Source: Geobacter metallireducens GS-15
Lineage (GTDB): Bacteria > Desulfobacterota > Desulfuromonadia > Geobacterales > Geobacteraceae
Assembly (NCBI RefSeq): GCF_000012925.1
Contig: NC_007517.1
Location: 180,001 to 212,000, forward strand
Direction of reading: 5' to 3'
Length of the DNA stretch: 32,000 nt
Made by a program: the position numbers and the translations under genes. The notes beneath the pieces were generated by a model. The model was given only the letters and a program-made list of their open reading frames with translations, ran no database searches and was not told the origin of the DNA. This document shows, piece after piece, positions 5,855-24,290 of the stretch (the first letter of the stretch is position 1; each line of letters starts with the position of its first letter).

Positions 5855-5864
5855 AAAGGTTTTT

Positions 5865-6386
5865 ATGCTTACTAACCGTCTGAAATCTGATCTCCAGGCC
5901 CGCATCGCCCACGCCGTCACCAACCGCGAGGCGGCGGTGGACGTGATAAAGGAGCTGCAGCGGCACTACGGCTGGCTCACCGACGAGGCGGTGGCCGAGG
6001 CGGCAGGGCTCCTGGGGCTCACGCCGCTCCAGGTGGAGGAGCTGGCCACTTTCTACGAAATGATCTACCGCCGGCCGGTAGGTAAGCGGGTGGTCCACGT
6101 CTGCGACTCCATCTCCTGCTGGGCCATGGGAGGAGAGAGCCTCATGGCGCACCTGGCGGCGAAGCTCGGCGTAGAACCCGGCGGGACCACGGCGGACGGG
6201 ATGTTCACGCTCCTTCCCTGCTGCTGCCTCGGCAACTGCGGCGAGGCGCCGACGCTGATGATCGGCGACACCCTCTATGGCCGGGTGACGCCGGAGCGGG
6301 GAGAGGAAATCCTGAGCAACGCGCGGGAAACCGCAGCAACCGTGCCAGAAGGACCCGGCACACCACAAGAGGAGGAGAACGTATGA
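5865..6386 (+). CDS. nuoE: NADH-quinone oxidoreductase subunit E (2Fe-2S)
   Basis: CDSISCWAMGG and LLPCCCLGNCGEAP are the NuoE 2Fe-2S ligand blocks. I prefer the start at ATG 5865 (MLTNRL) over track start 5829, which overlaps the end of nuoBCD. Confidence 0.9.
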   Translation: MLTNRLKSDLQARIAHAVTNREAAVDVIKELQRHYGWLTDEAVAEAAGLLGLTPLQVEELATFYEMIYRRPVGKRVVHVCDSISCWAMGGESLMAHLAAKLGVEPGGTTADGMFTLLPCCCLGNCGEAPTLMIGDTLYGRVTPERGEEILSNARETAATVPEGPGTPQEEENV

Positions 6387-6715
6387 AAAAGGGAATTATC
6401 ATCTCCATCAGCCTGCTGGCCACGGCGGCGTTCGCCACGGCCGGCCTCGCCGACACCAAGAAGGGGGGGAAGATCGACGGCGCCAAGGAATTCAAGGAGC
6501 ACTGCGCCGTCTGCCACCCCGACGGCGGCAACATCGTCAACCCCGCCAAGCCCCTGAAGAAAGCGACCCTGGAGGCCAACGGGGTCAAGACCTGGAAAGA
6601 CATCGTTGCCAAGATGCGCAACCCCGGACCGGGGATGACCAAGTTCGAGAAGAAGGATGTGAGCGACAAAGAGGCAAGGGCAATCGCGGAGTATGTTCTG
6701 AAGACCTTCAAGTAG
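6383..6715 (+). CDS. periplasmic monohaem class I c-type cytochrome (110 aa)
   Basis: Signal peptide MKKGIIISISLLATAAFATAGLA. There is a single CAVCH haem motif and a candidate Met ligand in NPGPGMTKF. The ATG overlaps the nuoE stop (ATGA at 6383-6386). Confidence 0.85.
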   Translation: MKKGIIISISLLATAAFATAGLADTKKGGKIDGAKEFKEHCAVCHPDGGNIVNPAKPLKKATLEANGVKTWKDIVAKMRNPGPGMTKFEKKDVSDKEARAIAEYVLKTFK

Positions 6716-6720
6716 AGGCA

Positions 6721-6761
6721 AGAGTGGCGACTGGCCACGGTCGCCACTCTCTTCTGTTTTT
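6721..6761 (+). terminator. strong intrinsic terminator-like hairpin inside the nuo locus
   Basis: AGAGTGGCGAC (6721-6731) and GTCGCCACTCT (6740-6750) form a perfect 11-bp stem with an 8-nt loop, followed by CTTCTGTTTTT. It begins 6 nt after the cytochrome c stop codon. Confidence 0.7.
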
Positions 6762-6774
6762 GACGGAGGATGGG

Positions 6775-7113
6775 ATGCTCAGGATCAAGCGGATATACGA
6801 TCCGCCGGCGCCGGAGGACGGAACGAGGGTGCTCGTGGATCGCCTCTGGCCCCGGGGGATTTCTAAGGACGAGGCCCGGATCGACGAGTGGCTCAAGGAG
6901 ATCGCCCCCAGCGACGAACTGAGGAAGTGGTTCGGCCATGATCCGGCCCGGTGGGAGGAGTTCCGGGAACGGTTCCGGCGGGAACTGGAAGCGAAGGCGG
7001 AAATCCTGGACCACCTTCGGACTCTTGTCGGCAAGGGAACGGTAACGCTCCTCTTTGCGGCCAAGGATGAAGAGCACAACAACGCGGTGGTTTTGAAGGA
7101 AATGCTCGATTAG
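6775..7113 (+). CDS. DUF488 family protein
   Basis: RBS GGAGGA at 6765-6770 and ATG at 6775. MLRIKRIYDPPAPEDGTRVLVDRLWPRGISK...WLKEIAPS..LRKWF is the characteristic DUF488 N-terminal pattern (recalled from memory). Confidence 0.75.
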   Translation: MLRIKRIYDPPAPEDGTRVLVDRLWPRGISKDEARIDEWLKEIAPSDELRKWFGHDPARWEEFRERFRRELEAKAEILDHLRTLVGKGTVTLLFAAKDEEHNNAVVLKEMLD

Positions 7114-7116
7114 CCC

Positions 7117-8385
7117 ATGGAACAGCTCCTCTTCCGACATAACCGCCCCGGCCGGTGCGTGACCTTTGCCGAGTACCGGGCCGAGGGGGGCTTCGCGGCG
7201 CTGGAGAAAGCCCTTGCCGGCATGTCCCCCAACGACGTCCAGCAGGTCGTGATCGACTCGGGCCTGCGCGGCCGCGGCGGCGCCGGCTTCCCCACGGGGA
7301 AGAAGTGGTCCTTCGTCCCCCGGGACATCCCCGGCCCCCGTTACCTCATCTGCAACTGCGACGAGATGGAGCCGGGGACCTACAAGGACCGGGTGCTCCT
7401 GGAGGCGAACCCCTATTCCCTCGTGGAGGGGATGACCCTGGCCGCCTACGCCATCGGTGTGGCCCACGCCTTCATCTTCATCCGGCGGGGGTACGAGGAG
7501 GCGGCGGAGAACTGCCGCCGGGCCATCGCCGAGGCGAAAGCGGCGGGGCTTCTGGGGGAGAACATCCTCGGCACCGGCTTCTCCCTGGAGCTGGACGTCC
7601 ACCAGTCCGCCGGGCGCTACATCTGCGGCGAGGAAACCGCTCTCATGAACGCCCTGGAGGGGAAGCGGGCCAATCCGCGGAGCAAGCCCCCCTTCCCGGC
7701 GGTGAAGGGGCTCTGGGGGCGCCCCACGGTGGTGAACAACGTGGAGACCCTGGCAAACATCCCGGCCATCGTGGCCAACGGGGCCGCCTGGTTCAAGGGG
7801 CTGGCACGGATCCCCGAGGCGGCGGGGATGAAGCTCTTCTGCGTGAGCGGCCATGTGAACAACACCGCCTGCTTCGAGTTGCCGCTCGGGATGACCCTGG
7901 GCGAGATCATCGACGGCCCCTGCGGCGGGATGCTCCCGGGACGGGAGTTCAAGGCGTGCATCCCCGGTGGGGCGTCGACGCCGTTCTTCACGAAGGAGCA
8001 CTGGCACGTTCCCATGGATTTCGACACCGTGGCCAAGGCCGGGTCCCGGCTCGGCACCGGCGGCATCGTGGTCTTCGACCGGGACACCTGCATGGTGGCG
8101 GCAACCCTGAACCTAATCGTCTTCTACGCCCGGGAATCGTGCGGCTGGTGCACCCCCTGCCGGGAGGGGCTCCCCTTCGTGCAGGACGTCCTGGCCCGGA
8201 TCGAGGCGGGGGAGGGACGGGAGGAGCACATCGGCATCCTCCGGGAGCATATCCAATACCTCAACTACTCCTTCTGTCCCCTGGCCCCGGGCGCCATGGG
8301 GCCGGTGGAGGGACTGTTGCGGCTCTTCGAGGGCGAGATCCGGGAGCATATTGTTCTGGGGCGCTGCCCCTTTGGAGGGAAATGA
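7117..8385 (+). CDS. nuoF: NADH-quinone oxidoreductase subunit F (FMN/NADH-binding)
   Basis: GLRGRGGAGFPTGKKWSF, YICGEETALMNALEG and ESCGWCTPCREG (N3 cluster). 422 aa. Confidence 0.95.
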   Translation: MEQLLFRHNRPGRCVTFAEYRAEGGFAALEKALAGMSPNDVQQVVIDSGLRGRGGAGFPTGKKWSFVPRDIPGPRYLICNCDEMEPGTYKDRVLLEANPYSLVEGMTLAAYAIGVAHAFIFIRRGYEEAAENCRRAIAEAKAAGLLGENILGTGFSLELDVHQSAGRYICGEETALMNALEGKRANPRSKPPFPAVKGLWGRPTVVNNVETLANIPAIVANGAAWFKGLARIPEAAGMKLFCVSGHVNNTACFELPLGMTLGEIIDGPCGGMLPGREFKACIPGGASTPFFTKEHWHVPMDFDTVAKAGSRLGTGGIVVFDRDTCMVAATLNLIVFYARESCGWCTPCREGLPFVQDVLARIEAGEGREEHIGILREHIQYLNYSFCPLAPGAMGPVEGLLRLFEGEIREHIVLGRCPFGGK

Positions 8386-8954
8386 TGGCACCACCGGTGG
8401 ATGATTTCGGCGGCCTCGTCACCCGGGCCACACGGCTCTGGACAGGGAACTTCGGCAACCTGCTCATTCTCTCCCTGGTCTTCGTGCTGGTGTGCTGGAT
8501 CCCCGTCGCCAACGTGGGGTTCCTTGCCGGCTACACCCGGGCGATCCTCAAGGTGGCCAGGGGGGAAAAGGCCGAGGCAGGGGACATCTTCCGGGCGTGG
8601 GACTGCTTCGGCGACCTCTTCGTCTACCTCCTCCTGGTGCTCGTGGCCCAGTTCGCCCTGAACCACGTGCCGGGCATCGGCCAGGTGGCGGGGTTCGCCC
8701 TGGCGGTGGTGGTTGCCCCGGGGATGTACGGGATCATCGACCGGAGGATGAAGTTCATGGACGCCTTCCGCTGGAGCCTCGAAGCCATCAAGGGGGATCT
8801 GGTCGGCTGGCTCCTGGCGGTGCTCATCGGCGGCATCTTCATGGCCGTGGGGGCGCTCCTTCTCGGCATCGGCATCATCATCACCCTCGGCTGGGGAAGC
8901 CTCGTCATGGCGCTCCAGTACGACCGGGAACGGCCCCGGGTGATCATCCTGTAG
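8382..8954 (+). CDS. integral membrane protein of unknown function (190 aa) between nuoF and nuoG
   Basis: This is the last 190 codons of track ORF 7155-8954. ATGATG at 8382-8387 overlaps the nuoF stop. There are four to five hydrophobic segments (NLLILSLVFVLVCWIPVANVGFLAG, LFVYLLLVLVAQFAL, VAGFALAVVVAPGMYGII, LLAVLIGGIFMAVGALLLGIGIIITLGWGSLVMAL). It has a loose DUF975-like look, which I have not verified. Confidence 0.7.
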   Translation: MMAPPVDDFGGLVTRATRLWTGNFGNLLILSLVFVLVCWIPVANVGFLAGYTRAILKVARGEKAEAGDIFRAWDCFGDLFVYLLLVLVAQFALNHVPGIGQVAGFALAVVVAPGMYGIIDRRMKFMDAFRWSLEAIKGDLVGWLLAVLIGGIFMAVGALLLGIGIIITLGWGSLVMALQYDRERPRVIIL

Positions 8955-8963
8955 CGAGAGACC

Positions 8964-10892
8964 ATGCCCAAGCTCATCATCGATCACATACCGGTTGAAG
9001 TCCCCGCCGGCACCAGCGTTCTGGAGGCGGCCAAGTCCGTCGGGATCTGGATCCCCCACTTCTGCTACCATCCGGCCCTCGGAAGCGTGGGGGCCTGCCG
9101 GCTCTGCGCCGTGAAGATGCTGGACGGCCCGGTGAAGGGGATCCAGATGTCGTGCATGCTCCCGGCCCAGGACGGGATGGTGGTCTCCACCACCGACCCC
9201 GAGGCCCTGAAGATGCGGAGCCTCGTCATCGAGTGGCTCATGACCAACCATCCCCACGACTGCCCGGTCTGCGACGAGGGGGGTGAGTGCCTCCTCCAGG
9301 ATTACACCGTCGCCGGGGGCCACGGCATCCGCCGCTACGAAGGGAAAAAGCGAACCCACGTGAACCAGTACCTTGGGCCGTACATCGAGCACGAGATGAA
9401 TCGCTGCATCCAGTGCTACCGCTGCGTCCGGTTCTACCAGGAATACGCCGGCGGGAGCGACTTCGGCGTCATGGGAAACGCCCGGCGGGTTTACTACGGC
9501 CGCTTTGAGGAGGGGAAGCTCGAATCTCCCTTCTCCGGCACCCTCGTGGACATCTGCCCCACCGGCGTCTTCACCGACAAGACCGCCCGCTTCCGGGCCC
9601 GCTACTGGGACTACGAGATGGCCCCCTCGGTCTGCCCCCACTGTTCTCTGGGATGCAACACCGTGCCGGCGGCCCGCTACCGGGAGCTCCTGAAAACCAT
9701 TGCCCGGGAGAACCCCACCGTGAACGGCCCCTTCATCTGCGACCGGGGACGGTTCACCAATGCCCCGGTGAACGACCCGGCGCGCCCCCGGGTGCCGCTG
9801 GTGGACAGGAAAGAGGTTTCGTGGGATGCGGCCCTGGATGCCCTCATGGTGCGGGTCAGCGAACTGGAAGAGCTGTACGGCCCCGGGAGCCTGGCAGTGG
9901 TCGGCTCGCCCCGGCTCGCGCTGGAGGGGAACATCCTGCTGGCGCGCCTGGCGGACCTCCTCGGCGCGGGGCACCTCTGCTACTTTACCGAGAAGGAGGA
10001 GGGGGAGCGGACCGCCGCGGCAGTCGACCTCCTCGCCGGCGACAAAGCCGCCTCCATGGCGGACGTGCGGAAGGCCGACTGCGTAGTCATCCTCGAAGCG
10101 GACCTCCGGGACGAGGGGCCCATGATGCTCCTGGCGGTCCGGCAGGCATGGCGCCACGGCGCGCCGGTCTTCCTGGTGGGGAAGCACGCCCCCCTGGAGC
10201 AGGCCCGCACCGTCTCCATGGAAGCCATCGAGCTCAGCATCCTCGAAGAGGTTCCCCTGGCCATCTTCGAGCGCCCCGTGGTCATCTGCGGGACCAGGAA
10301 CAGCACCCGCGCCGCCATCGAACTCCTGGCCCGGGCCGATGCCAAGATCGCCTGCCTCCTCCCCGGCCCCAACGCCTTCGGAGCCAGGCTTCTGGCAAAG
10401 GAGCACGGAGCGGTCGCCCTGGCCGAGGCCGTGGCCTCCGGAAAGGTGAAGGGGATCATCGCCGTGGAGGCAGACATCCCGGAGGAGCTTCTGGCGCAAG
10501 TCCCCCTTATCGTCGCCGCCGACTGGCTCCCCACGGAGACGCTCCGGCGGGCCCAGGTGGTTCTCCCCACGGCCGCCTGGGTAGAGATGGACGGCACCTT
10601 CGTCAACAACGAGGGGCGGGCACAGCGCTTCCGCAAGGCCATGGTCCCCGGTCTCCCGATCCGGGGGCTCCCGGCCCGCTACCACGCCTCACCGGACAAG
10701 CCGGCGCCCTTCCATCCGCCCCGGGTCCACCGCAGCGTTTCACCCGGCGGTGATACTCGCCCCGCCTGGCGGATCGTGGCGGAACTCATGGAGCGGTGCG
10801 GAGGGGAGACAGAGACTGACCCCTTTGTGGGGCGGTGGGAGGTGTTGCGGGGGCTCGATCCGGAGGGAGATGGGGTGAGGCTGAGAGGGTGA
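8964..10892 (+). CDS. nuoG: NADH-quinone oxidoreductase subunit G (642 aa)
   Basis: CYHPALGSVGACRLCAV (2Fe-2S), HPHDCPVCDEGGECLLQD, CIQCYRCVRF and CPTGVFTDK Fe-S motifs, followed by a molybdopterin-oxidoreductase-like domain. Confidence 0.95.
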   Translation: MPKLIIDHIPVEVPAGTSVLEAAKSVGIWIPHFCYHPALGSVGACRLCAVKMLDGPVKGIQMSCMLPAQDGMVVSTTDPEALKMRSLVIEWLMTNHPHDCPVCDEGGECLLQDYTVAGGHGIRRYEGKKRTHVNQYLGPYIEHEMNRCIQCYRCVRFYQEYAGGSDFGVMGNARRVYYGRFEEGKLESPFSGTLVDICPTGVFTDKTARFRARYWDYEMAPSVCPHCSLGCNTVPAARYRELLKTIARENPTVNGPFICDRGRFTNAPVNDPARPRVPLVDRKEVSWDAALDALMVRVSELEELYGPGSLAVVGSPRLALEGNILLARLADLLGAGHLCYFTEKEEGERTAAAVDLLAGDKAASMADVRKADCVVILEADLRDEGPMMLLAVRQAWRHGAPVFLVGKHAPLEQARTVSMEAIELSILEEVPLAIFERPVVICGTRNSTRAAIELLARADAKIACLLPGPNAFGARLLAKEHGAVALAEAVASGKVKGIIAVEADIPEELLAQVPLIVAADWLPTETLRRAQVVLPTAAWVEMDGTFVNNEGRAQRFRKAMVPGLPIRGLPARYHASPDKPAPFHPPRVHRSVSPGGDTRPAWRIVAELMERCGGETETDPFVGRWEVLRGLDPEGDGVRLRG

Positions 10893-11069: not shown

Positions 11070-11447
11070 ATGCCAATGATCCCGGAAAAACTATTGGAAA
11101 TCATGAAACAGGACGGAGTTGTCGCCATTGCGACCTTGGGGGAGGATGGTCCGCATATGGTCAACACGTGGAATAGCTATATCAAGGTCTCACAAGACGG
11201 GCGTTTGTTCATTCCAGCGGGGTACATGCATAAGACTGAGGCCAACATTGCCCATAATCCCGATGTGCTGATCACCTTGGGAAGCAGCAAGGTTGCGGGG
11301 TTGCACGGTCCCGGCGCCGGTTTCCTGATCAAGGGTAAGGCGAACTTCATAACTTCCGGGCCGGATTTTGACTTTATGAAGGCAAAGTTCAACTGGTTAC
11401 GAGCCACATTGGCCGTTACCATCGAATCGGCCACTCAAACCTGGTGA
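11070..11447 (+). CDS. pyridoxamine 5'-phosphate oxidase-like FMN-binding split-barrel protein (125 aa)
   Basis: RBS GAGGAG lies upstream. VVAIATLGEDGPHMVNTW...KTEANIAHNPDVLITL is typical of small PNPOx-family proteins. G+C is visibly lower: three hand-counted 60-nt lines gave 57, 48 and 50%. Confidence 0.65.
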   Translation: MPMIPEKLLEIMKQDGVVAIATLGEDGPHMVNTWNSYIKVSQDGRLFIPAGYMHKTEANIAHNPDVLITLGSSKVAGLHGPGAGFLIKGKANFITSGPDFDFMKAKFNWLRATLAVTIESATQTW

Positions 11448-12545: not shown

Positions 12546-12665
12546 GGACATTTTAACGGAAAGGAGGGGAACGGGTAGTCCGCACGCATCAAGGTATCAC
12601 TCACGCATTGGTCATTGTCCCGGAGAAGTGAACTCATTACGCAACATTTCAAAGGAGGACGTGTC

Positions 12666-13091
12666 ATGGTTGAGAACGTGAATACCAAAGACAAGCATGG
12701 GCATACGCCGCTCATCGAGGCGGCCAAGACAGGGGACGCCGAGACGATCAGAGATCTCCTGAACCGCGGCGCCGACATGGATGCACGGAGCGAGAAGGGG
12801 AAGACGGCCCTGCATTACGCGGCGGCCAACGGTAAGGCAGCGGCCATCAAGACTCTGCTGGAGGCGGGGGCTGAAGTGGACCCGCGAGACATGGAATGGC
12901 ACACCCCCCTCATGCTGGCGGCCAACTACGGATGCAACGAGTGCGTGGAAACCCTTTTGACGGCCGGCGCCGACCCCCTGGCCAAAATGAAGCTCGGCAA
13001 CACCGCCCTGACCTATGCGGAAGCGAACGGACACCCCGACACCCTGGAACTGATAACGAAGGCCCAGCGGGCCAAGGCCGGAAACGCCTGA
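12666..13091 (+). CDS. ankyrin-repeat protein (141 aa, about 4 repeats)
   Basis: RBS AAAGGAGG at 12651-12658 and ATG at 12666. Repeats: GHTPLIEAAKTGDAETIRDLLNRGADMDA, GKTALHYAAANGKAAAIKTLLEAGAEVD, WHTPLMLAANYGCNECVETLLTAGADP, GNTALTYAEANGHPDTLELI. Confidence 0.85.
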   Translation: MVENVNTKDKHGHTPLIEAAKTGDAETIRDLLNRGADMDARSEKGKTALHYAAANGKAAAIKTLLEAGAEVDPRDMEWHTPLMLAANYGCNECVETLLTAGADPLAKMKLGNTALTYAEANGHPDTLELITKAQRAKAGNA

Positions 13092-13679: not shown

Positions 13680-13810
13680 CATCCCCACGCCTGAGCGTCT
13701 AACCGGCAGACCGATCCTGCCTCTCCATCCCCGCATTCCGCAAGCCCTCCCCTTCCACAGCAACAGACTTTATGCCGAAAATGAAACAGTGGCTTACAAT
13801 TACCAAACTC

Positions 13811-13816
13811 TATAAT
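13811..13816 (+). promoter_or_regulatory. perfect TATAAT hexamer in an AT-rich patch (candidate -10 element)
   Basis: TATAAT at 13811-13816 sits in a local 47% G+C stretch (hand count of line 13741-13800). No good -35 lies at 16-18 nt; TTACAA is only 11 nt upstream. Confidence 0.25.
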
Positions 13817-13897
13817 GTGTGGATGTTGCGGCATCTCAGAGCCCAGGCACATGCGCACGCTAGACTGCGACAGGGGACCATCAGCGAGGTTTCCTGC

Positions 13898-13993
13898 ATG
13901 TGGCCCCGTCCCGGCAGCACCGACCCGGTGCCCAAGGTGAGCTTCGTCACAAAGGTGGACGATCAGGTCTGCACGGTGGGCTACTACAAGTAG
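13898..13993 (+). CDS. candidate 31-aa small protein (MWPRPGSTDPVPKVSFVTKVDDQVCTVGYYK); may extend upstream to 13772
   Basis: GAGG at 13886-13889 lies 8 nt before ATG 13898. 28 of the 31 sense-codon third positions are G/C, as in neighbouring real genes. A strong terminator follows 38 nt downstream. I recognised no homologue. Confidence 0.35.
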   Translation: MWPRPGSTDPVPKVSFVTKVDDQVCTVGYYK

Positions 13994-14031
13994 CATGGAT
14001 TGACATCTCCCCCACGGAAGTATGAACGCAT

Positions 14032-14075
14032 GGGGTCTCTCCGGCGAAAAACTGCCGGGAGAGGCCCCTTTTTTT
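14032..14075 (+). terminator. strong intrinsic terminator 37 nt upstream of nuoJ
   Basis: GGGGTCTCTCCGGC (14032-14045), loop gaaaaact, then GCCGGGAGAGGCCCC (14054-14068, one bulged G and one G.U), followed by seven T (14069-14075). Confidence 0.75.
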
Positions 14076-14112
14076 CTGCAATTTACCCCCGATATGGTAG
14101 ATTTTATCCGAT

Positions 14113-14651: not shown

Positions 14652-14936
14652 ATGAAACATCTCAAGGGAATGGTTGTTCTGCTGGCTGCAGTAGTGGCGA
14701 TGTCCGCGGTCGGATGCAAGAAGAAGGAGGTAGGGCCGGCGGAGAAGGCGGGACAAGAGATCGACAAGGCCGTGGAAAAGGCCGGCGAAGGGCTTGGCAA
14801 GGCAACCGAAAAGAGCAAGGAGGCTGTCGAGAAAGCCGGTGAAAAGGTGGGCGAGGCCGTCGACAAAAGCAAAGAGGCAGTCGACAAGGCTGCCGACAAG
14901 ACCAAAGATGCGGTCAAGGACGCAACACAGAAGTAA
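14652..14936 (+). CDS. small lipoprotein with Lys/Glu/Ala-rich 11-mer repeats (94 aa)
   Basis: RBS AAGGAGG at 14639-14645. Lipobox LAAVVAMSAVG-C. The mature part is repetitive: EKAGQEIDKAVEKAGEGLGKATEKSKEAVEKAGEKVGEAVDKSKEAVDKAADKTKDAVKDA. This is the last 94 codons of track ORF 14022-14936. Confidence 0.75.
   Translation: MKHLKGMVVLLAAVVAMSAVGCKKKEVGPAEKAGQEIDKAVEKAGEGLGKATEKSKEAVEKAGEKVGEAVDKSKEAVDKAADKTKDAVKDATQK

Positions 14937-15256: not shown

Positions 15257-15260
<4 letters not shown>
14952..15260 (+). CDS. nuoK: NADH-quinone oxidoreductase subunit K
   Basis: 102 aa with three TM segments. LIGIEVMLNAAMLAF and ALTSAEVSLALAMVVYL carry the conserved membrane glutamates. Confidence 0.92.
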
Positions 15261-17134
<1,874 letters not shown>

Positions 17135-17198
17135 ATGGAGAACCGCCGGAATGGATGCGCAGCATGAATGACCGGACTGAACACGGAAGGGACCGGGG

Positions 17199-17891
17199 AT
17201 GAGCACGAAGAGCGAAACTCACTATGCGGAGCGAATCGGCTGGCTGCGGGCGGCAGTGCTCGGGGCCAACGACGGGATCATTTCCACCGCGAGCCTGGTC
17301 GTGGGGGTGGCGGCCGCCCATGCCGCCCGGGGAAATGTGCTCATAGCCGGGGTGGCGGGCCTCGTCGCCGGCACCATGTCCATGGCAGCGGGCGAGTATG
17401 TGTCCGTCAGCTCCCAAGCCGACACCGAAAAGGCCGACCTGGCCCGCGAGAGGAGGGAACTGGAGGAAGACCACGAGTTCGAGCTCAAGGAACTTGCGTC
17501 CATCTATGTGGACAGGGGGCTTGAACCGCAGCTTGCCAAGCAGGTCGCTACGCAGCTCATGGCCCACGACGCCCTGGCGGCCCACGCCCGCGACGAACTG
17601 GGGCTCAACGAAATACACACTGCGCGCCCCATCCAGGCGGCACTGGCGTCGGCGGTCACCTTTGCCGTCGGAGCAACCCTCCCCCTCATCATCACCCTGC
17701 TCAGTCCGGAGCAACTCATCGTCCCCGGCGTGGCCGGAGGCTCCCTCGTCTGCCTGGCGCTCCTGGGAACGCTGGCGGCACGGGCTGGGGGCGCGGACAT
17801 CGCCGTCGGCGCAACGCGGGTAACGCTCTGGGGGGCGCTGGCCATGGCGGCCACGGCAGGGGTCGGGGCGCTCTTCGGGACGGCTGTGTGA
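17199..17891 (+). CDS. VIT1/CCC1-family membrane protein (putative Fe/Mn transporter)
   Basis: ERIGWLRAAVLGANDGIISTASLVVGVAAA, SMAAGEYVSVSSQ, and an acidic central helix (ERRELEEDHEFELKEL) followed by three TM segments. Confidence 0.8.
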   Translation: MSTKSETHYAERIGWLRAAVLGANDGIISTASLVVGVAAAHAARGNVLIAGVAGLVAGTMSMAAGEYVSVSSQADTEKADLARERRELEEDHEFELKELASIYVDRGLEPQLAKQVATQLMAHDALAAHARDELGLNEIHTARPIQAALASAVTFAVGATLPLIITLLSPEQLIVPGVAGGSLVCLALLGTLAARAGGADIAVGATRVTLWGALAMAATAGVGALFGTAV

Positions 17892-17987
17892 GCGGGTGAG
17901 CAATACACGTTAGGCAACCCTCACATGAGACGCACAACATCACGGAAATTATACTCGGGAGAAAAATCTCCAGACAAGGAGCTTGGC

Positions 17988-19778
17988 ATGACCATCATCA
18001 CTGCTCACTGCCGGTGCATCCTGCAGTCTGTCGCTTCCCTTATTCTGCTACTGCTTTTTGTGCAGGTCGGCGCAGCTCAGCCTTCTGATGCAGCTCAGCC
18101 TCCTGATACGTGCAGTGGCTGCCACGCGGACCGGTCGAAAATGCTTCGGTTCGGCTTCCCCCACCTGAGCGTGACTGCTGAGGAGGCAACCAGGCAATCA
18201 GGCATGAACGCAGCCTGTTCAGATTGCCATTTGGGAGACCCGACGAACCCGGGCCGCACGGCTGCCCACCGGGGCATGGGACGGTTGCTATTGGTGCGCA
18301 AGAAAGGGATGCTGGCCGAGTCTGTACAGCGCGAGGCCCCTCTGAAGCTGACCGGCAATCCCATGACCCGTATTCAGCATCAAATCGTCAGGGACGGCAA
18401 GGTGGTCATCGACCCCAATGTCACCCTGATCCTCTATCAGGACAAGCGTCGAGACAATCTTTCCCAGGATTTCGGCGTCATGGAGAAGACCTGCGGCGCC
18501 TGCCATGCCAAGGAGTTCTCCGAGTTCACCCAGAGTACTATGGGACGCAACGCCAAACAGAGCCGATACCAGAGCTGGACCGACCAACAGCGAGGCCCCC
18601 ATAACTGCGGCGCATGGTTCAATGGAAATTACGAGAGAATCTCAACCAACACGGCCGTCCCCTTTTCTCGGGAGCAAAGTGCGTTGAACCAGCGCAGTTG
18701 CAACACCTGCCACGTGGGGTGCCTCGATTGTCACTACGATCCACAGCCGACGGATCCGGCCAACCCAAAGCGGGGGATACACACCTTCAACCGAGTACCG
18801 AAGCCGGAAAGCTGCTATGGTGGCGGCCGTGGGCAGATCTGCCATGCCGGGCCGGAGGAGCGGCGCCGGGGAGCGGGCTATTTCGGCGGCAGCTACGCCA
18901 ACCCGGAGGGAATGGAGCCGGACATCCATCAGGCTAAGAAGGTTGGCTGTCTCGACTGCCACGAAAACAGCGGATCCAAGAGCGGCCTGGGACATGGGAT
19001 GATCAAGCGGCAGGGACGTTGCGACCGGTGCCACGAGCGGCAGGTCGCCAGCCACAAGCTGACGCTACACAAAACTCTCTCCTGCGAAGCATGCCACATT
19101 CAGAACATTTCCGGCTACCAGGGGACCTTCTGGGGACCAGGCAAACTGGCCGGTTCAAACACGCCCTTCTTCAAGTACAAGGAATACTACGGGATCATGA
19201 AGGAGCCTATTCTGATACGCGATCAAAACGGGCGCTGGATACCGGTAAAACCATTTCCGATGGCGGTCCTGAACCAGAAGGAGTCGGCATTGAAGCCGGG
19301 GCTGCACTGGCGCTGGCCCAAAGAACTGCCCGACCTGCAGCGCACCGATGACGCTTACGGGTATGTCGGGCTGTTCGACGGCTTGCCCGAGAACAACCGG
19401 GCACTGGCATGGATCCAGATGGACAAGGTCTCCCATAAATATGGGAAAAGCCGTCCTTGCGCCTCGTGCCACGAGTTGCCCGACGGCGAGCAGCGCCAGC
19501 ATGTGGAATGGGACTTCACTGACGCCGGCGCTTTACCCTTCAGCGGGAGTCACGTGGTAGTTGCCGGGAAGAAGGGGCTTTCCATTCGTGACATGAAGTC
19601 TGAAAAAATCGACGTCCTCGATGGATACCGCTTGTCCAGCCTGGCACCCTGGTTCTATTTGAAGGATCGTTGGCAAATTGAGGGAGACTTCTCCTTGCCG
19701 TCGATCAAGGAGCAGGAGTTCTACAGCCGGGCCAAGGGAGATGTCGCCAAGGCGCGTCAGGCGAGGGTTGTGCATTGA
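17988..19778 (+). CDS. secreted multihaem c-type cytochrome (596 aa, nine CXXCH plus one possible CX8CH)
   Basis: RBS AAGGAG at 17976-17981. Signal peptide ...LILLLLFVQVGAAQP. Haem motifs: CSGCH, CSDCH, CGACH, CNTCH, CLDCH, CLDCH, CDRCH, CEACH, CASCH. The C-terminal ~200 aa contain only one haem motif. G+C is lower than the flanks: two hand-counted lines gave 55 and 48%. Confidence 0.9.
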   Translation: MTIITAHCRCILQSVASLILLLLFVQVGAAQPSDAAQPPDTCSGCHADRSKMLRFGFPHLSVTAEEATRQSGMNAACSDCHLGDPTNPGRTAAHRGMGRLLLVRKKGMLAESVQREAPLKLTGNPMTRIQHQIVRDGKVVIDPNVTLILYQDKRRDNLSQDFGVMEKTCGACHAKEFSEFTQSTMGRNAKQSRYQSWTDQQRGPHNCGAWFNGNYERISTNTAVPFSREQSALNQRSCNTCHVGCLDCHYDPQPTDPANPKRGIHTFNRVPKPESCYGGGRGQICHAGPEERRRGAGYFGGSYANPEGMEPDIHQAKKVGCLDCHENSGSKSGLGHGMIKRQGRCDRCHERQVASHKLTLHKTLSCEACHIQNISGYQGTFWGPGKLAGSNTPFFKYKEYYGIMKEPILIRDQNGRWIPVKPFPMAVLNQKESALKPGLHWRWPKELPDLQRTDDAYGYVGLFDGLPENNRALAWIQMDKVSHKYGKSRPCASCHELPDGEQRQHVEWDFTDAGALPFSGSHVVVAGKKGLSIRDMKSEKIDVLDGYRLSSLAPWFYLKDRWQIEGDFSLPSIKEQEFYSRAKGDVAKARQARVVH

Positions 19779-19945
19779 AAAAGCTTCTGTCATGGGGTGC
19801 CGTCGGACTCCTAACGAGCGCCCTGCTCGATCCGCTCATCTATTCCATGCTGGAGAAGCCGATTCCGTGGCTGCGCGATATACTCATGGGGGCGGGGGGC
19901 TGCGTCTGCTTCTATCTCCTGATCCGCTTCCGCAATGAGCTGTGA
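19775..19945 (+). CDS. candidate 56-aa two-TM micro-protein, translationally coupled to the cytochrome (TTG start)
   Basis: TTG 19775-19777 overlaps the cytochrome stop (cATTGA). Translation: (M)KKLLSWGAVGLLTSALLDPLIYSMLEKPIPWLRDILMGAGGCVCFYLLIRFRNEL. 43/56 third positions are G/C. It is absent from the track because of the non-ATG start. Confidence 0.4.
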   Translation: MKKLLSWGAVGLLTSALLDPLIYSMLEKPIPWLRDILMGAGGCVCFYLLIRFRNEL

Positions 19946-19988
19946 CGGTGGCGGGTTGCCACAAAACGTGATGTCGTAAAACAGGTAC

Positions 19989-21485
19989 TTGATCGTGACC
20001 GACTATCCGATCCTCACCATCCTCATCTTCCTCCCCCTGGCGGGATGCCTCTGTTTAGCGCCGGTCTGGCACTGCCGGACGTCTGCCCGCGCCGTGGCCC
20101 TGGGGTTTGCCGTTGCCGAACTGGCCCTGGCGGCGTGGCTTCTGGTGGCCGCCACGGGGATGCCCGCCGCCCCCGGCGCGCCGACGGGGTATTTCCTCTG
20201 GGAGGATGCCGTGTGGATCGAGCGCTTCGGCATCCGCTACCTCCTTGGGATGGACGGGATCAGCCTCCTCATGGTGGCGCTCACGGCCTTCATCACGGTG
20301 GTCGCCATGGCGGTATCGTGGCGCGCCGTCACCGAGCGGACGGCCCTCCACTATTTCCTCATCCTCCTCATGGAGAGCGGGCTCATGGGGGTCTTCCTCG
20401 CCCTGGATCTCGTCCTCTTCTACCTCTTCTGGGAGGTGATGCTGATCCCCATGTTCTTCCTGATCGGCATCTGGGGACACGGCCGCCGCATCTACTCGGC
20501 GGTGAAGTTCTTCCTCTACACCCTGGCCGGTTCACTCCTGATGCTCCTGGCCATCATCGGGGTCTACCTCATACATGGCGATGCCACCGGCATCTACACC
20601 TTCACCCTCCCCCTCCTGGCCAAGGCCCCCATAGCCCACGCCGCGGCACCGTGGCTCTTCGGGGCGTTTCTCCTGGCCTTCGCCATCAAGTTCCCCCTCT
20701 TCCCGGTGCACACCTGGCTCCCCGATGCCCACACCGACGCCCCCACGGCCGGGAGCGTGATCCTGGCGGCGCTCCTCCTGAAAACCGGGGCCTATGGGCT
20801 GGTTCGCTTCGGCTACCCCCTCTTTCCCGAGGCGGCCAAGGGGTTCACGCCCTTCATTTCGGCGCTGGCCGTCGTCGGCATCCTCTACGCCTCGTGGGTC
20901 GCCTATGCCCAGGAGGACATGAAGCGGATGGTGGCCTACTCCAGCGTGGGGCACATGGGGTTCGTGGCCCTGGGAATCGCCTCCTGGAGCCCGGTGGCCC
21001 TGTCCGGTTCCATCCTCCAGATGGTGAACCACGGCGTCACCACCGGCGCCCTCTTCGCCCTGGTGGGGATGCTGGACGAACGGACCGATACCCGGGAGAT
21101 CGCCGCCTACGGCGGGGTGTGGGGGAAAGCGCCCAAGCTCGCCTTCTTCTTTCTCCTTTTCGCCATGACATCGGCGGGGTTGCCGGGGCTCAACAACTTC
21201 ACGGGCGAATTCCTGATCCTTGCGGGGGTCTTCCGGACTACGCCGGCGGCAGCGGCCATCGCCTTTATCGGCATCGTGCTGCCGCTCATCTACACAGTGA
21301 GGCTCGTGCAGGAGGTGCTCTTCCAGACGGAGCGGCGGCCCCTGCGACTGCCGGACGTGACCCTGCGGGAGGAGGCGCTTCTGGCGGTGCTGGCGACGAT
21401 CGACGTGTATATCGGTGTCCATCCGAAACCGCTCCTGGATATCCTCAAGGTGCCGGTGGCGCTCCTGACGGGGGCGACGCCATGA
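19989..21485 (+). CDS. nuoM: NADH-quinone oxidoreductase subunit M (antiporter-like)
   Basis: 498 aa. FAIKFPLFPVHTWLPDAHTDAPTAGSVILAALLLKTGAYG. TTG start at 19989; GTG at 19995 is an alternative. Confidence 0.93.
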   Translation: MIVTDYPILTILIFLPLAGCLCLAPVWHCRTSARAVALGFAVAELALAAWLLVAATGMPAAPGAPTGYFLWEDAVWIERFGIRYLLGMDGISLLMVALTAFITVVAMAVSWRAVTERTALHYFLILLMESGLMGVFLALDLVLFYLFWEVMLIPMFFLIGIWGHGRRIYSAVKFFLYTLAGSLLMLLAIIGVYLIHGDATGIYTFTLPLLAKAPIAHAAAPWLFGAFLLAFAIKFPLFPVHTWLPDAHTDAPTAGSVILAALLLKTGAYGLVRFGYPLFPEAAKGFTPFISALAVVGILYASWVAYAQEDMKRMVAYSSVGHMGFVALGIASWSPVALSGSILQMVNHGVTTGALFALVGMLDERTDTREIAAYGGVWGKAPKLAFFFLLFAMTSAGLPGLNNFTGEFLILAGVFRTTPAAAAIAFIGIVLPLIYTVRLVQEVLFQTERRPLRLPDVTLREEALLAVLATIDVYIGVHPKPLLDILKVPVALLTGATP

Positions 21486-22882
21486 CCATAACCGAACTCT
21501 GGGCCCTCATCCCTCTTCTGATCCTCGCCTGCGGGAGCGTCTTCGTGCTCATGCTCGGGGCAATCGTGCCGGGACGGTGCGGAACCGTCATCGGCGTTGC
21601 CGTCTGCGCCGGCACGGCTCTCTGGGCGATGCTGGCTCCGCCGCAGCCCCTGGCGCCGCCGACTCTGGGAGTGACCGTCACCCCCTTTACCCGCTTCTTC
21701 CTCGTATTTTTCGCCGTGACGGCAGGCTTGTCGCTCCTCCTGGCCCGAGACCATGCGGCGCGGCAGGGGCTTAAGGGGGAGGAGTACCCGGCCACGATCC
21801 TCTTCGGCACCTTCGGCATGGGTGTGGTGGCGAGCGCGGCCAACTTCCTGACCCTCTTCCTGGGGCTGGAGGCCCTCACCTTCGCCTTCTACATTCTGGT
21901 GGCCTACGACCACAACCGCCCGGCGTCCGGGGAGGCAGGGCTCAAGTACCTCCTCATGGGGGCCGTGTCGGCGGCCTTTGTGGCATTCGGCATCGCGCTC
22001 CTCTACGGGGCCACGGGGACCCTGGAGATTAGCCGGGCCGTGGCCGCCTCGGCAGCCGGGGGAGGGATCGCCCTGGCGGGATGGGGGCTCCTCTTGGCGG
22101 GGCTCGCCTTCAAGATATCCCTGGCACCGGCCCACCTCTGGACCCCGGACATCTACCAGGGGGGGCCGACGCCGGTGGTGGCCTTCCTCGCCTCCGGCTC
22201 CAAGGGGGCGGCCATCGCCCTTTTCCTGCTCATTCTCTCCCCCCTCGGAACGCTCGGCACCCTGCGGGCGCCCCTCTGGGGGCTGGCGTTCCTCTCCATG
22301 ACCGTCGGGAACCTGGCGGCACTCCTGCAGCCCAACGTGAAGCGGATGCTCGCCTACTCATCCGTGGCCCAGATGGGGTACGTGGCCCTGGCGCTCCTGT
22401 CGGGGGGACGGGGGTACGAGGCTGCGGCGTTTTATGCCGTGGCCTACGGAGCCATGGTCCTGGCTGCCTTCGGCGCCCTTGCCTCCCTGGAGGGAGAAAC
22501 GCCGCTGGAACAGGTGGATGACCTCCGGGGGCTCGGCTATCACCGCCCCTTCCAGGGGGTGGTGCTGGCCGTGGCCATGCTCGCCCTGGCAGGGATTCCT
22601 CCAACGGTGGGCTTTGTGGGAAAGTTCGCCATCTTCTTCGCGGCCCTGAAAGGGGGAGAGGCTCCCCTGGCGGTCATCGGCATCCTCACGGCGGCGGCCT
22701 CGGCCTACTACTACCTGCGGGTGGTGGTGAACCTCTACATGAAACCGGCGGATGAGACGGGCTCCGGCCAACGCCCCACCGTTGCGGAAGCGCTCTCCCT
22801 TGGCATTGCAGCCCTCGCCATCTTCATCCTCGGCATCTGGCCCGGCCCCCTCTTCGACCTGGCAGCCGCGATTCTTCGCTAG
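21482..22882 (+). CDS. nuoN: NADH-quinone oxidoreductase subunit N (antiporter-like)
   Basis: 466 aa, the last part of track ORF 20045-22882. ATGA overlap with the nuoM stop. FKISLAPAHLWTPDIYQGGPTPVVAFLASGSKGAA. Confidence 0.93.
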   Translation: MTITELWALIPLLILACGSVFVLMLGAIVPGRCGTVIGVAVCAGTALWAMLAPPQPLAPPTLGVTVTPFTRFFLVFFAVTAGLSLLLARDHAARQGLKGEEYPATILFGTFGMGVVASAANFLTLFLGLEALTFAFYILVAYDHNRPASGEAGLKYLLMGAVSAAFVAFGIALLYGATGTLEISRAVAASAAGGGIALAGWGLLLAGLAFKISLAPAHLWTPDIYQGGPTPVVAFLASGSKGAAIALFLLILSPLGTLGTLRAPLWGLAFLSMTVGNLAALLQPNVKRMLAYSSVAQMGYVALALLSGGRGYEAAAFYAVAYGAMVLAAFGALASLEGETPLEQVDDLRGLGYHRPFQGVVLAVAMLALAGIPPTVGFVGKFAIFFAALKGGEAPLAVIGILTAAASAYYYLRVVVNLYMKPADETGSGQRPTVAEALSLGIAALAIFILGIWPGPLFDLAAAILR

Positions 22883-22894
22883 AACGGAGCCCCC

Positions 22895-23227
22895 GTGCAG
22901 AGCATCATAAAGGCCCTCATCAGCCTCGTCATCATCATCGCCTGCGCCAAAATCGGCAAACGCTTCCCGACCCTCGGGGGCCTCATCGCCACCATGCCCC
23001 TCACGAGCCTCCTGGTCCTCCTCTGGCTCTGGTCCGACGCGCCGGGAGACTACCGGCTCATGGAGGGGTACACGAAGGGGGTCCTCTGGGGGATCATCCC
23101 GACGGTCCTCTTTTTCGTGGCAGCCTTGTTCCTCTTCCGGCGCCAGTTCCCCCTGCCCCTGGTCCTGGCGGCCAGCTTCGGTGTCTGGCTGACCGGGGCC
23201 GCAGTGCACCAGTATTTTCTCAGGTGA
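22895..23227 (+). CDS. small four-TM membrane protein (110 aa; resembles DUF3147-type proteins, unverified)
   Basis: GTG start 12 nt after the nuoN stop. Hydrophobic throughout (IKALISLVIIIACAKIGKRFPTLGGLIATMPLTSLLVLLWLW...). Confidence 0.7.
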   Translation: MQSIIKALISLVIIIACAKIGKRFPTLGGLIATMPLTSLLVLLWLWSDAPGDYRLMEGYTKGVLWGIIPTVLFFVAALFLFRRQFPLPLVLAASFGVWLTGAAVHQYFLR

Positions 23228-23369
23228 GGCACTTACAAAACTATTGCGGGACCGGTCTGCGTTGTTGCCGCTCGCTCGAAAGCTCAACGTACCAACGGGT
23301 ACGCGTCGCTTCCTCGTTCGCTTGCGCCTAGCATCCCGGCCTCCTCATCACGTTTTGCAAATGCCTCAC
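23224..23369. repeat. 146-nt imperfect palindromic intergenic element (E2)
   Basis: Arms 23224-23241 (GTGAGGCACTTACAAAAC) and 23352-23369 (GTTTTGCAAATGCCTCAC) are complementary at 16/18. A central CGTACC-aacg-GGTACG hairpin is present. Like E1, it starts at GGTGAG overlapping the upstream TGA stop and contains CGGGACCG. Confidence 0.65.
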
Positions 23370-23390
23370 GTAGCAACGAAAGGAATTGTC

Positions 23391-24290
23391 ATGTCTCGCT
23401 GGTTGAAGGCCGCAGCCGCGGCCTTTCTCATGCTGCTGAGTACGACCGTGGCCCGGGCAGGCGATGCGCAGCACTACGCAGTGGCAGAGTTGCCGACGCC
23501 GGTGCTCAACACCCCGGATTTTCCCCGCGTATTCGGCGGCCAGGACGGCAGGACCGTCAAAACCGACCACCAGGGACAGATCCGAGAACTAGAGTTCATC
23601 GCCCTGCCGGGGGCAGCCTTTACGGTGCAGGAGACGCTCCGCAGGGGGGGATCGGTGGTCCACCGGGTCACCACCGACGACTACCCCTACCCGACCACGA
23701 CAGGCTACTTTGTGGATGCCCGCTTCGTACGGCTCACGGACGAAACGCCCCATCCCCGTGCCCGGAAACTTCCTTCCCGCAACAAGATCATCACCCGACT
23801 CCTGGCGGCCCGGGGAAGCCGTTACGTCTGGGGAGGAAACGTCCGTGCGGGGGTGCCGGATATGATCCGCCTCTTTCCCCCGGCGGGAAAACTCTCCGCC
23901 GAGACGGAGCGCCGCTGGCTGCTGCAAGGGCTCGACTGCTCGGGGCTCCTCTACGAGGCCACCGACGGCGTCACCCCCCGCAACACGAGCGCCCTTGCTG
24001 GCTACGGCCGGGGGGTGCCCATTGCCGGGCTCTCTACAGAAGAGATCCGCCAGCAACTGGAGCCCCTGGACCTCATCGTCTGGAAGGGACACGTGATTAT
24101 CGTCCTTGACCGGGAGCGGACCATCGAGAGCCGACTCGGCCCGGTGCCGGGAAAGCGGGACGGTGTGGCCGTGAGGCCGCTGCGGGATGTTCTGTCCGAG
24201 GTGATGGGAAAGAGGGTGCCTGTGGATCGGTTCGCGGAGAAAAACGGGAGGGGAGAGAAGACCTTTGTCGTGCGACGGTGGTACCCCTAG
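23391..24290 (+). CDS. secreted NlpC/P60-family (C40) cell-wall hydrolase-like protein
   Basis: ATG 23391 follows GAAAGGA. Signal peptide MSRWLKAAAAAFLMLLSTTVARA. YVWGGN ... GLDCSGLLYEA (catalytic Cys) ... VWKGHVIIVLD (His). Confidence 0.7.
   Translation: MSRWLKAAAAAFLMLLSTTVARAGDAQHYAVAELPTPVLNTPDFPRVFGGQDGRTVKTDHQGQIRELEFIALPGAAFTVQETLRRGGSVVHRVTTDDYPYPTTTGYFVDARFVRLTDETPHPRARKLPSRNKIITRLLAARGSRYVWGGNVRAGVPDMIRLFPPAGKLSAETERRWLLQGLDCSGLLYEATDGVTPRNTSALAGYGRGVPIAGLSTEEIRQQLEPLDLIVWKGHVIIVLDRERTIESRLGPVPGKRDGVAVRPLRDVLSEVMGKRVPVDRFAEKNGRGEKTFVVRRWYP

Follow-up and report, generated by a model that had tools for sequence, protein, structure and literature searches.

The nuoL-nuoM junction of the Geobacter nuo-2 operon as a probable slot for exchangeable cargo genes, with a three-gene occupant in Geobacter metallireducens GS-15

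The window analysed here, a stretch of 32,000 nucleotides (nt) from Geobacter metallireducens GS-15, carries the second complex I operon (nuo-2) of this bacterium, all of it on the + strand. Between nuoL and nuoM, two structural genes of this operon, it displays an island of three genes coding for a predicted iron/manganese transporter, a multihaem c-type cytochrome and a membrane protein of 56 amino acids (aa), the latter encoded by a short open reading frame (ORF) called the micro-ORF below. The stop of nuoL is at 17134; the start of nuoM is at 19989 (TTG) or, more probably, at 19995 (GTG, as called in G. grbiciae), and the gap between the two genes measures 2854 nt. A preliminary description, made from the sequence alone, had proposed an interval of about 2.85 kb with a VIT1 gene, a 596-aa cytochrome with nine CXXCH motifs and a 56-aa ORF with two transmembrane segments; distance, coordinates and anatomy were all correct. 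The features of the locus are as follows.

15257..17134, + strand: nuoL-2 (Gmet_0168), conserved left flank; Pfam Proton_antipo_N and Proton_antipo_M, 89-96% identity to the nuoL of relatives.
17199..17891, + strand: VIT1/CCC1-family Fe2+/Mn2+ transporter gene (Gmet_0169); PF01988, E 4.6e-67.
17892..17987, + strand: 96-nt spacer between the VIT1 and cytochrome genes, containing a weak hairpin (GGAGA/TCTCC) and AAGGAG as ribosome-binding site.
17988..19778, + strand: ten-haem periplasmic c-type cytochrome gene (Gmet_0170), 596 aa; nine CXXCH motifs and one CX8CH.
18813..18845, + strand: CX8CH haem motif of the cytochrome, C-Y-G-G-G-R-x-x-x-C-H (CYGGGRGQICH in Gmet_0170), invariant in the alignment described below.
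19095..19775, + strand: C-terminal all-beta domain of the cytochrome (AlphaFold2), with one CXXCH and an invariant final His.
19775..19945, + strand: micro-ORF for a 56-aa two-helix membrane micro-protein, a conserved fixture of the interval that is absent from the original Gmet numbering.
19989..21485, + strand: nuoM-2 (Gmet_0171), conserved right flank; Pfam Proton_antipo_M, 86-94% identity in relatives.

The content of the nuoL-nuoM junction differed widely among relatives, including metagenome-assembled genomes (MAGs). L numbers designate the loci compared.

G. grbiciae (L010): the same island, 97-98% identity.
G. hydrogenophilus (L018): 138-aa ORF, PAS/SpoIIE phosphatase, micro-ORF.
G. 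benzoatilyticus (L012): PDC-S01 ATPase, DarT, DarG, 239-aa ORF, Argonaute-associated-like gene, glyoxalase-like gene, micro-ORF.
MAG (L015 and L021): radical SAM gene, then the G. benzoatilyticus block.
ENA MAG (L016): GDSL lipase, 178-aa ORF, micro-ORF.
G. pickeringii (L014): rve transposase, phosphatase-like gene, nSTAND NTPase, toxin-antitoxin pair, DUF2284, NosL; no micro-ORF.
G. anodireducens (G. sulfurreducens group, L013): empty, nuoL and nuoM abut or overlap.
Geotalea uraniireducens (L017): empty, nuoL and nuoM abut or overlap.
Geomobilimonas luticola (L101): empty, nuoL and nuoM abut or overlap.

Between orthologous flanks, the junction thus came in six distinct cargo alleles and was empty in three cases, as expected of a transfer hotspot, and the island was common only to G. 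metallireducens and G. grbiciae among the junctions compared. Cargo displayed a G+C content of 50-57%, versus 65-68% for nuo genes, and was oriented like the operon throughout, one toxin-antitoxin pair excepted. Acquisition by insertion, which the preliminary description had suspected from base composition, is therefore supported by comparative evidence instead (junction empty in three relatives, other cargo in five); its statement of an uninterrupted junction elsewhere holds for the three species with empty junctions. The block of G. benzoatilyticus (L012, 8954-14654) forms a small defence island with PDC-S01 (E 5e-116), DarT (5e-42) and DarG (4e-50), and also encodes a protein with weak pAgo/SIR2-APAZ-like matches.

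Three positions marked the limits of the island and the joints between alleles.

17121..17198, + strand: left breakpoint and nuoL-VIT1 spacer; nucleotide homology stops at 17120-17126, at the nuoL stop codon.
17301..17311, + strand: GTGGGGGTGGC inside the VIT1 gene, the 11-nt microhomology that joins VIT1 to an imported nuoL 3' end in L015.
19770..19780, + strand: right breakpoint, where the cytochrome stop is fused to the micro-ORF start (CAT-TGAAA-AAG).

On the left, homology was lost at the nuoL stop with respect to G. hydrogenophilus, G. benzoatilyticus and the ENA MAG. On the right, it returned with the second base of the start codon of the micro-ORF (19776). Three other alleles displayed the native micro-ORF start, CC-ATG-AAA-AAG preceded by a GGAT ribosome-binding site, where G. 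metallireducens reads CAT-TGA-AAA-AAG; cytochrome homologues at other loci end in CATTGA, and those of Geomonas in CATTGAAAG. The right joint therefore lies in a TGAAA microhomology. Since the start codon and ribosome-binding site of the micro-ORF were overwritten by the 3' end of the cytochrome gene, the cytochrome would have come after the micro-ORF.

A second joint was found in MAG L015, where 53 nt flanked by its radical SAM gene and the DarTG block displayed 92% identity to VIT1 codons 19-38 (window positions 17259-17311). Within L015 positions 10198-10262, this VIT1-like stretch ends in GTGGGGGTGGC and runs straight into TGGTTTAG, which corresponds to the final bases, stop codon included, of a nuoL of the G. 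benzoatilyticus type, the end of L015's own nuoL being different. Beyond TGGTTTAG, 3.57 kb were 97.6% identical to the G. benzoatilyticus cargo. Read in this way, a G. benzoatilyticus-like segment composed of the nuoL 3' end and its cargo recombined into a genome having VIT1 in the interval, the right side of the swap presumably using homology in the micro-ORF/nuoM region. On sequence grounds, the L015 joint is a direct footprint of cargo swapping and follows the pattern of homology-facilitated illegitimate recombination. Likewise, identity between G. metallireducens and G. grbiciae (window 20500-23500 versus L010) dropped in the 3' half of nuoM, in nuoN and in the GlpM-like gene: it was 98-100% before this stretch, 85-91% within it and 97-99% beyond it, which looks like a recombination tract adjoining the interval. 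Direct and inverted repeats around the island were limited to short, chance-looking matches with no att-like pair; no integrase gene or domain occurred in the window or beside the interval, and no recurrent inverted repeats were found at gene boundaries.

The micro-ORF was a constant occupant of the junction in the G. metallireducens clade. Its product displays two hydrophobic segments and has no match in NCBIfam. As the preliminary description had stated, its TTG start overlaps the cytochrome stop codon (CAT TGA AAA). Since a GAGGG motif lies 7 nt before this TTG, translational coupling would be possible, and the micro-ORF is likely coupled to the cytochrome in this way. The family comprised 195 clusters with 65-100% identity in Geobacter, Geomonas and Desulfuromonadales, nearly all of exactly 56 aa, with 16 invariant residues. 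Ratios of non-synonymous to synonymous differences (pN/pS) ranged from 0.10 to 0.32, with a mean of 0.25 over all pairs. The micro-ORF is a conserved gene and, judged from these ratios, under purifying selection.

Among 87 loci, the micro-ORF preceded nuoM in six, all from the G. metallireducens clade (the window, L010, L012, L016, L018 and L021), four of the genomes other than G. metallireducens having unrelated cargo in front of it. At other loci, the upstream gene was YaiI-like (21), RlmI-like (8), 3-hydroxyisobutyrate-dehydrogenase-like (5), an old-yellow-enzyme gene or others. A 4-nt NTGA overlap with the upstream gene was recorded at 30 of 76 loci and involved at least five unrelated upstream families; starts were TTG or GTG at 26 of 73. 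Because the overlap occurs with many unrelated genes, that with the cytochrome is a habit of the small gene and not a sign of partnership: the micro-ORF appears, from these arrangements, to depend on translational coupling to whatever gene precedes it. A role as accessory subunit of complex I was considered as well, but conserved linkage to nuo genes was not found, the micro-ORF adjoining nuoM only in the G. metallireducens clade.

The cytochrome gene starts with an ATG having AAGGAG 7 nt upstream. Its product begins with a hydrophobic helix followed by VGA-AQ, resembling a signal peptide (judged by eye), and this putative export signal together with several CXXCH motifs qualifies it as a multihaem c-type cytochrome. 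Nine CXXCH and one CX8CH agree with the published ten-haem annotation (a transcriptome supplement, PMC10989804, labels Gmet_0170 as a periplasmic c-type cytochrome with ten haems) and with the earlier estimate of about ten haems; the C-terminal part had also been correctly described, its last ~226 residues containing a single CXXCH. A total of 670 homologues were retrieved, the G. grbiciae copy being 98% identical. In an alignment of 37 sequences (A1), all nine CXXCH, the C-Y-G-x-G-R-x-x-x-C-H motif, eight further His and the C-terminal His were invariant. CX8CH was kept in Nitrospirota homologues of 50% identity, and as CMGDGRAQICH in a paralogue of 32% identity. Since ten haems, with their ten proximal His, are matched by only eight further invariant His, up to two haems would have Met or open coordination. 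Locus L006 of a Nitrospirae MAG (3982-5913 and 5983-7767) carries tandem paralogues with 32% and 53% identity to the window protein, both having nine CXXCH and CX8CH.

A profile search of the PDB with the cytochrome family gave only two matches, both to NrfA: G. lovleyi 6v0a (E 4e-7) and 8bcx (E 5e-5). The 6v0a match covers ~100 residues over the haem 1-3 motifs and aligns CX8CH where NrfA has the CXXCK of its active-site haem 1; no CXXCK occurs in the cytochrome sequence. Membership in the NrfA family itself was rejected: besides this missing motif, the match to Pfam Cytochrom_C552 (PF02335) scored 15.6 bits against a cut-off of 24.1, over profile positions 104-177 of 438. NCBIfam gave only sub-threshold similarity to ExtN/ExtO-type haem motifs. 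The C-terminal 227 residues, modelled with AlphaFold2 on alignment A3, formed ~13 strands (predicted local distance difference test, pLDDT, 80; predicted template modelling score, pTM, 0.80), and Foldseek found no PDB match for them (best E 0.22, TM score below 0.2). It returned nothing either for the full-length model, which was poor (pLDDT 61), as expected for a cytochrome folded without haems. An NrfA-like catalytic core is a reasonable hypothesis, and the protein may be a periplasmic redox protein working independently of complex I, possibly an enzyme with an NrfA-like active-site haem.

This cytochrome is normally found elsewhere. At ten other loci (Geobacter, Geomonas, Geobacteraceae MAGs, Nitrospirota and another deltaproteobacterium), no nuo gene, VIT1 gene or micro-ORF was present within ~6 kb, and more than 80 other micro-ORF loci were all devoid of the cytochrome. 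In G. benzoatilyticus, an 82%-identical copy lies elsewhere in the genome, the nuoL-nuoM junction itself being filled by the defence block. No conserved functional partner emerged: the other cytochrome loci shared no synteny, and sensor kinases adjoined the gene in three or four only. Two proposals of the preliminary description find no support in this distribution, namely that of an iron-related island and that of cytochrome and micro-ORF as one system, the latter being at odds also with the many unrelated genes preceding the micro-ORF.

Its claim of a low cytochrome G+C content was right in direction (59.0% versus 66% for nuoL and nuoM) but not in extent, the announced 48-55% not being reached even by the lowest 400-nt windows (56-57%). 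G+C at third codon positions (GC3) was 0.72, versus 0.88-0.89 for nuoL and nuoM. Since GC3 is 0.77-0.78 in the closest relatives' copies at other loci, the gene itself accounts for part of the low G+C. Composition as proof of foreign origin was set aside as weak on this account and because several non-nuo genes of the window reach only 0.65-0.77. Upstream of the cytochrome, homology to the nearest cytochrome locus (L002) starts only at 17974. The 96-nt leader and its GGAGA-AAAA-TCTCC hairpin exist as previously described, but the hairpin does not surpass shuffled sequence in stability (z = 0.22, an equally good fold being obtained with 111 of 200 shuffles), and an Rfam scan of 13.5-23.5 kb gave only chance-level snoRNA matches and no family for the leader.

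The VIT1 gene product matched PF01988 over its full length (226.4 bits, cut-off 28.1, profile positions 1-213 of 214), which places it in the family, and is annotated with five transmembrane helices (PMC10989804, supplement). It would export Fe2+/Mn2+ to the periplasm. The VIT1 remnant of L015 implies that VIT1 held the interval in more than one lineage, independently of the cytochrome. It is probably the older resident, which fits its higher GC3 (0.82 versus 0.72 for the cytochrome).

The operon as a whole is composed of nuoA, a fused nuoBCD, nuoE, a monohaem cytochrome c gene, DUF488, nuoF, a gene for a ~185-aa membrane protein, nuoG, a PNPOx-like gene, nuoH, an ankyrin gene, nuoI, nuoJ, a lipoprotein gene, nuoK and nuoL, then the three island genes, nuoM, nuoN and a GlpM-like gene. 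The genome paper lists an acetate kinase homologue upstream as Gmet_0149 and the cytochrome between nuoE and nuoF as Gmet_0155 (PMC2700814). Gmet_0167 (nuoK-2), Gmet_0168 (nuoL-2), Gmet_0169 (VIT1/CCC1), Gmet_0171 (nuoM-2) and Gmet_0172 (nuoN) are named in the transcriptome supplement (PMC10989804). Other junctions also varied. The G-H junction contained, according to the genome, a PNPOx-like gene, YjdM, DUF4160/DUF2442, a PAS kinase gene or a Pyr_redox_2 gene, and the E-F, I-J and J-K junctions likewise differed between genomes; the H-I ankyrin and F-G membrane protein genes were kept.

Expression of the island is documented by co-culture transcriptomes. Log2 normalised values for Gmet_0168, Gmet_0169, Gmet_0170 and Gmet_0171 are 8.5, 7.9, 9.2 and 7.5 in one listing and 9.9, 8.1, 9.4 and 9.3 in another (PMC10989804, file 2). 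By comparison with the file-4 table, the two listings appear to be the co-cultures with G. sulfurreducens and Methanosarcina barkeri. The island genes are thus expressed, at levels like those of flanking nuo-2 genes and well below nuo-1 (~12-13) (PMC10989804). A pattern scan of the island revealed no promoter-like or convincing terminator-like site on the + strand. Together with the similar read levels, this suggests, as the simplest reading, that the passengers are transcribed by read-through from the nuo-2 promoter. The observations that the preliminary description had named as fatal to its own proposal were not made: the cytochrome is expressed, the micro-ORF is conserved, and the island is not present in all relatives.

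Taken together, the observed boundaries, the differing alleles, the VIT1 remnant with its joint and the independent distribution of the three genes lead us to regard the nuoL-nuoM interval of Geobacter nuo-2 operons as a gene-flux hotspot or cargo slot, and the island as a composite of three independent genes (probability about 0.8). In the proposed course of events, the micro-protein gene would have been fixed directly 5' of nuoM throughout the G. metallireducens clade, with VIT1 as an older resident of the slot. The normally stand-alone cytochrome gene would have been moved or imported last, its TGA stop landing over the micro-ORF start, turning the ATG into TTG and replacing the native ribosome-binding site. 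Cargo turnover would proceed by recombination, the conserved nuo flanks providing homologous anchors and short microhomologies the other joint. Co-orientation and lack of terminators may be the price of survival in an operon whose distal genes nuoM and nuoN need transcription. Some points weigh against this view. Only about ten nuo-2 junctions, from relatives picked by nuoL similarity, were sampled; no source was identified for the left joint of the cytochrome insertion (17892-17973); and Gmet_0155 and Gmet_0170, the operon's two cytochromes, show co-regulation in co-cultures, which leaves room for a selected functional link to nuo-2 in G. metallireducens.

This last point belongs to an attractive alternative that follows the preliminary description, a functional module of complex I in which the cytochrome, tethered by the 56-aa protein, would exchange electrons or be co-regulated with the NADH dehydrogenase while VIT1 handles iron. 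The genes are co-oriented, there is an overlap between the cytochrome stop and the micro-ORF, and the same operon has a second cytochrome c, with a single haem, between nuoE and nuoF. In co-culture with G. sulfurreducens, moreover, Gmet_0155 and Gmet_0170 both increase, changing jointly in one comparison (PMC10989804, Table 1). Yet VIT1, cytochrome and micro-ORF were never found together at the other loci examined, and the nuo-2 operon of the closest relatives is devoid of the cytochrome. As for the micro-ORF, it stays before nuoM behind DarTG, lipase or phosphatase cargo, it is far from nuo or cytochrome genes in most Geobacteraceae, and its 4-nt overlap is shared with at least five unrelated upstream families. 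Gene distribution thus largely refutes this interpretation, to which we grant little chance.

Instead of general recombination, exchange could also depend on a site-specific system of its own, either integron-like cassettes or a tyrosine/serine recombinase acting at an att site. Co-oriented cargo differing between close relatives is reminiscent of cassette arrays, several other nuo-2 junctions vary too, and the 96-nt leader contains a core-like GTTAGGC heptamer. This is nevertheless very unlikely given the lack of an integrase gene in the window or beside the slot, the absence of attC-like inverted or direct repeats flanking the island, and breakpoints that fall at gene ends with differing microhomologies (GTGGGGGTGGC and TGAAA) and no common site; of mobile-element genes only one turned up, an rve transposase of the ordinary kind in a single allele. 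Equally improbable is an ancestral island that was deleted or replaced in other lineages. The VIT1 remnant of a second lineage does show that VIT1 predates the present G. metallireducens allele, and other inserts (ankyrin at nuoH-nuoI, the ~185-aa membrane protein gene at nuoF-nuoG) are ancient. However, nuoL and nuoM overlap or abut without a scar in three deeper-branching genera or species groups, the cytochrome sits at unrelated loci in all other genomes, G. benzoatilyticus included, and its 3' end overwrote the micro-ORF start and ribosome-binding site, marking it as a later arrival.

A broader proposal, rather doubtful in its present form, combines two ideas: that at least the E-F, G-H, I-J, J-K and L-M junctions of nuo-2 jointly form an integrase-free "expression rack" of strain-exchanged genes, captured through homology-anchored illegitimate recombination and put under the control of a respiratory operon, and that Gmet_0170 represents an uncharacterised family of ten-haem periplasmic enzymes with a catalytic haem bound through CX8CH at the NrfA active-site position, beside a new beta domain.

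Several side observations were made in the window. For most of the non-nuo genes interleaved in the operon (6383-7113, 11070-11447, 12615-13091 and 14652-14936; monohaem cytochrome c, DUF488, PNPOx-like, ankyrin, lipoprotein), GC3 was 0.65-0.77 and thus below the 0.81-0.91 of the 12 nuo genes. In the nuoF-nuoG gap (~8390-8954, + strand), a hydrophobic ~185-aa protein with a GC3 of 0.91 is encoded by the tail of the 7155-8954 ORF, the program-called ORF at 8492-8998 (GC3 0.39) being in the wrong frame; a 189-aa gene occupies the equivalent place in Geotalea and Geomobilimonas. The nuoI-nuoJ spacer (13680-14112, 433 nt) contains no frame with coding-like GC3 and may be a decayed remnant of earlier cargo, because G. 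hydrogenophilus has an sCache_2 gene at that junction. Finally, a Bcp/peroxiredoxin-like ORF (1890-2360, + strand) carries an in-frame TGA at 2019-2021, precisely at the catalytic Cys of the TPG-C-T motif, and a GGCUUCC...GGAAGCC hairpin begins ~17 nt 3' of it. It probably encodes a selenocysteine peroxiredoxin with a stem resembling a selenocysteine insertion sequence (SECIS).

The island genes themselves are already annotated in a well-studied genome. Our literature search found no description of a variable nuo-2 cargo hotspot with a recombination footprint, of the wide conservation of the 56-aa protein, or of the CX8CH/NrfA-like character of the cytochrome family. That these genes adjoin one another in the operon is here no evidence of a machine made of cytochrome and complex I; this appealing reading is wrong and is hereby corrected. 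Foreign genes, anti-phage systems included, can apparently be accommodated among the structural genes of a large respiratory enzyme's operon and go on being exchanged there, with a nucleotide-level footprint of how such swaps happen; this bears on operon evolution and on the hiding places of accessory genes in Geobacter genomes. Two uncharacterised, strongly conserved proteins are flagged as well: the Geobacteraceae 56-aa membrane protein and the ten-haem cytochrome family with its invariant CX8CH.

Among known systems, the cytochrome is closest to NrfA, the pentahaem nitrite reductase of the wider NrfA/octahaem/HAO group, with which it shares GGG...C-H and an RRRGxGYF stretch at the active-site region. 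It differs by its ten haems instead of five, by CX8CH in place of CXXCK, by an additional all-beta C-terminal domain of ~226 residues and by the absence of an NrfH-type partner gene nearby. Gmet_0169 resembles VIT1/CCC1 vacuolar iron transporters, whose bacterial relatives include MbfA-type Fe exporters, in its full-length PF01988 domain, yet it has no N-terminal erythrin/ferritin-like domain and its position in a nuo operon is peculiar to the G. metallireducens lineage. The operon shares gene order, nuoBCD fusion and the ankyrin gene between nuoH and nuoI with other Geobacter nuo-2 clusters (GSU3429-3445-type); in those of the G. sulfurreducens type, however, nuoL and nuoM overlap, G. metallireducens having additional genes at E-F, G-H, J-K and L-M. 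Finally, the slot resembles hotspots of horizontal gene transfer (genomic islets or defence islands, homology-facilitated illegitimate recombination) in its conserved flanks with wholly different content in close relatives, in low-G+C cargo including DarT/DarG, PDC-S01, toxin-antitoxin genes and an insertion sequence element, and in one 11-nt microhomology joint with the other side anchored in homologous DNA. It is distinguished from them by its location in the operon of a respiratory enzyme, with a structural gene of that single enzyme on either side, by cargo that is nearly all co-oriented with the operon, and by the variation of at least four other junctions of the same operon.

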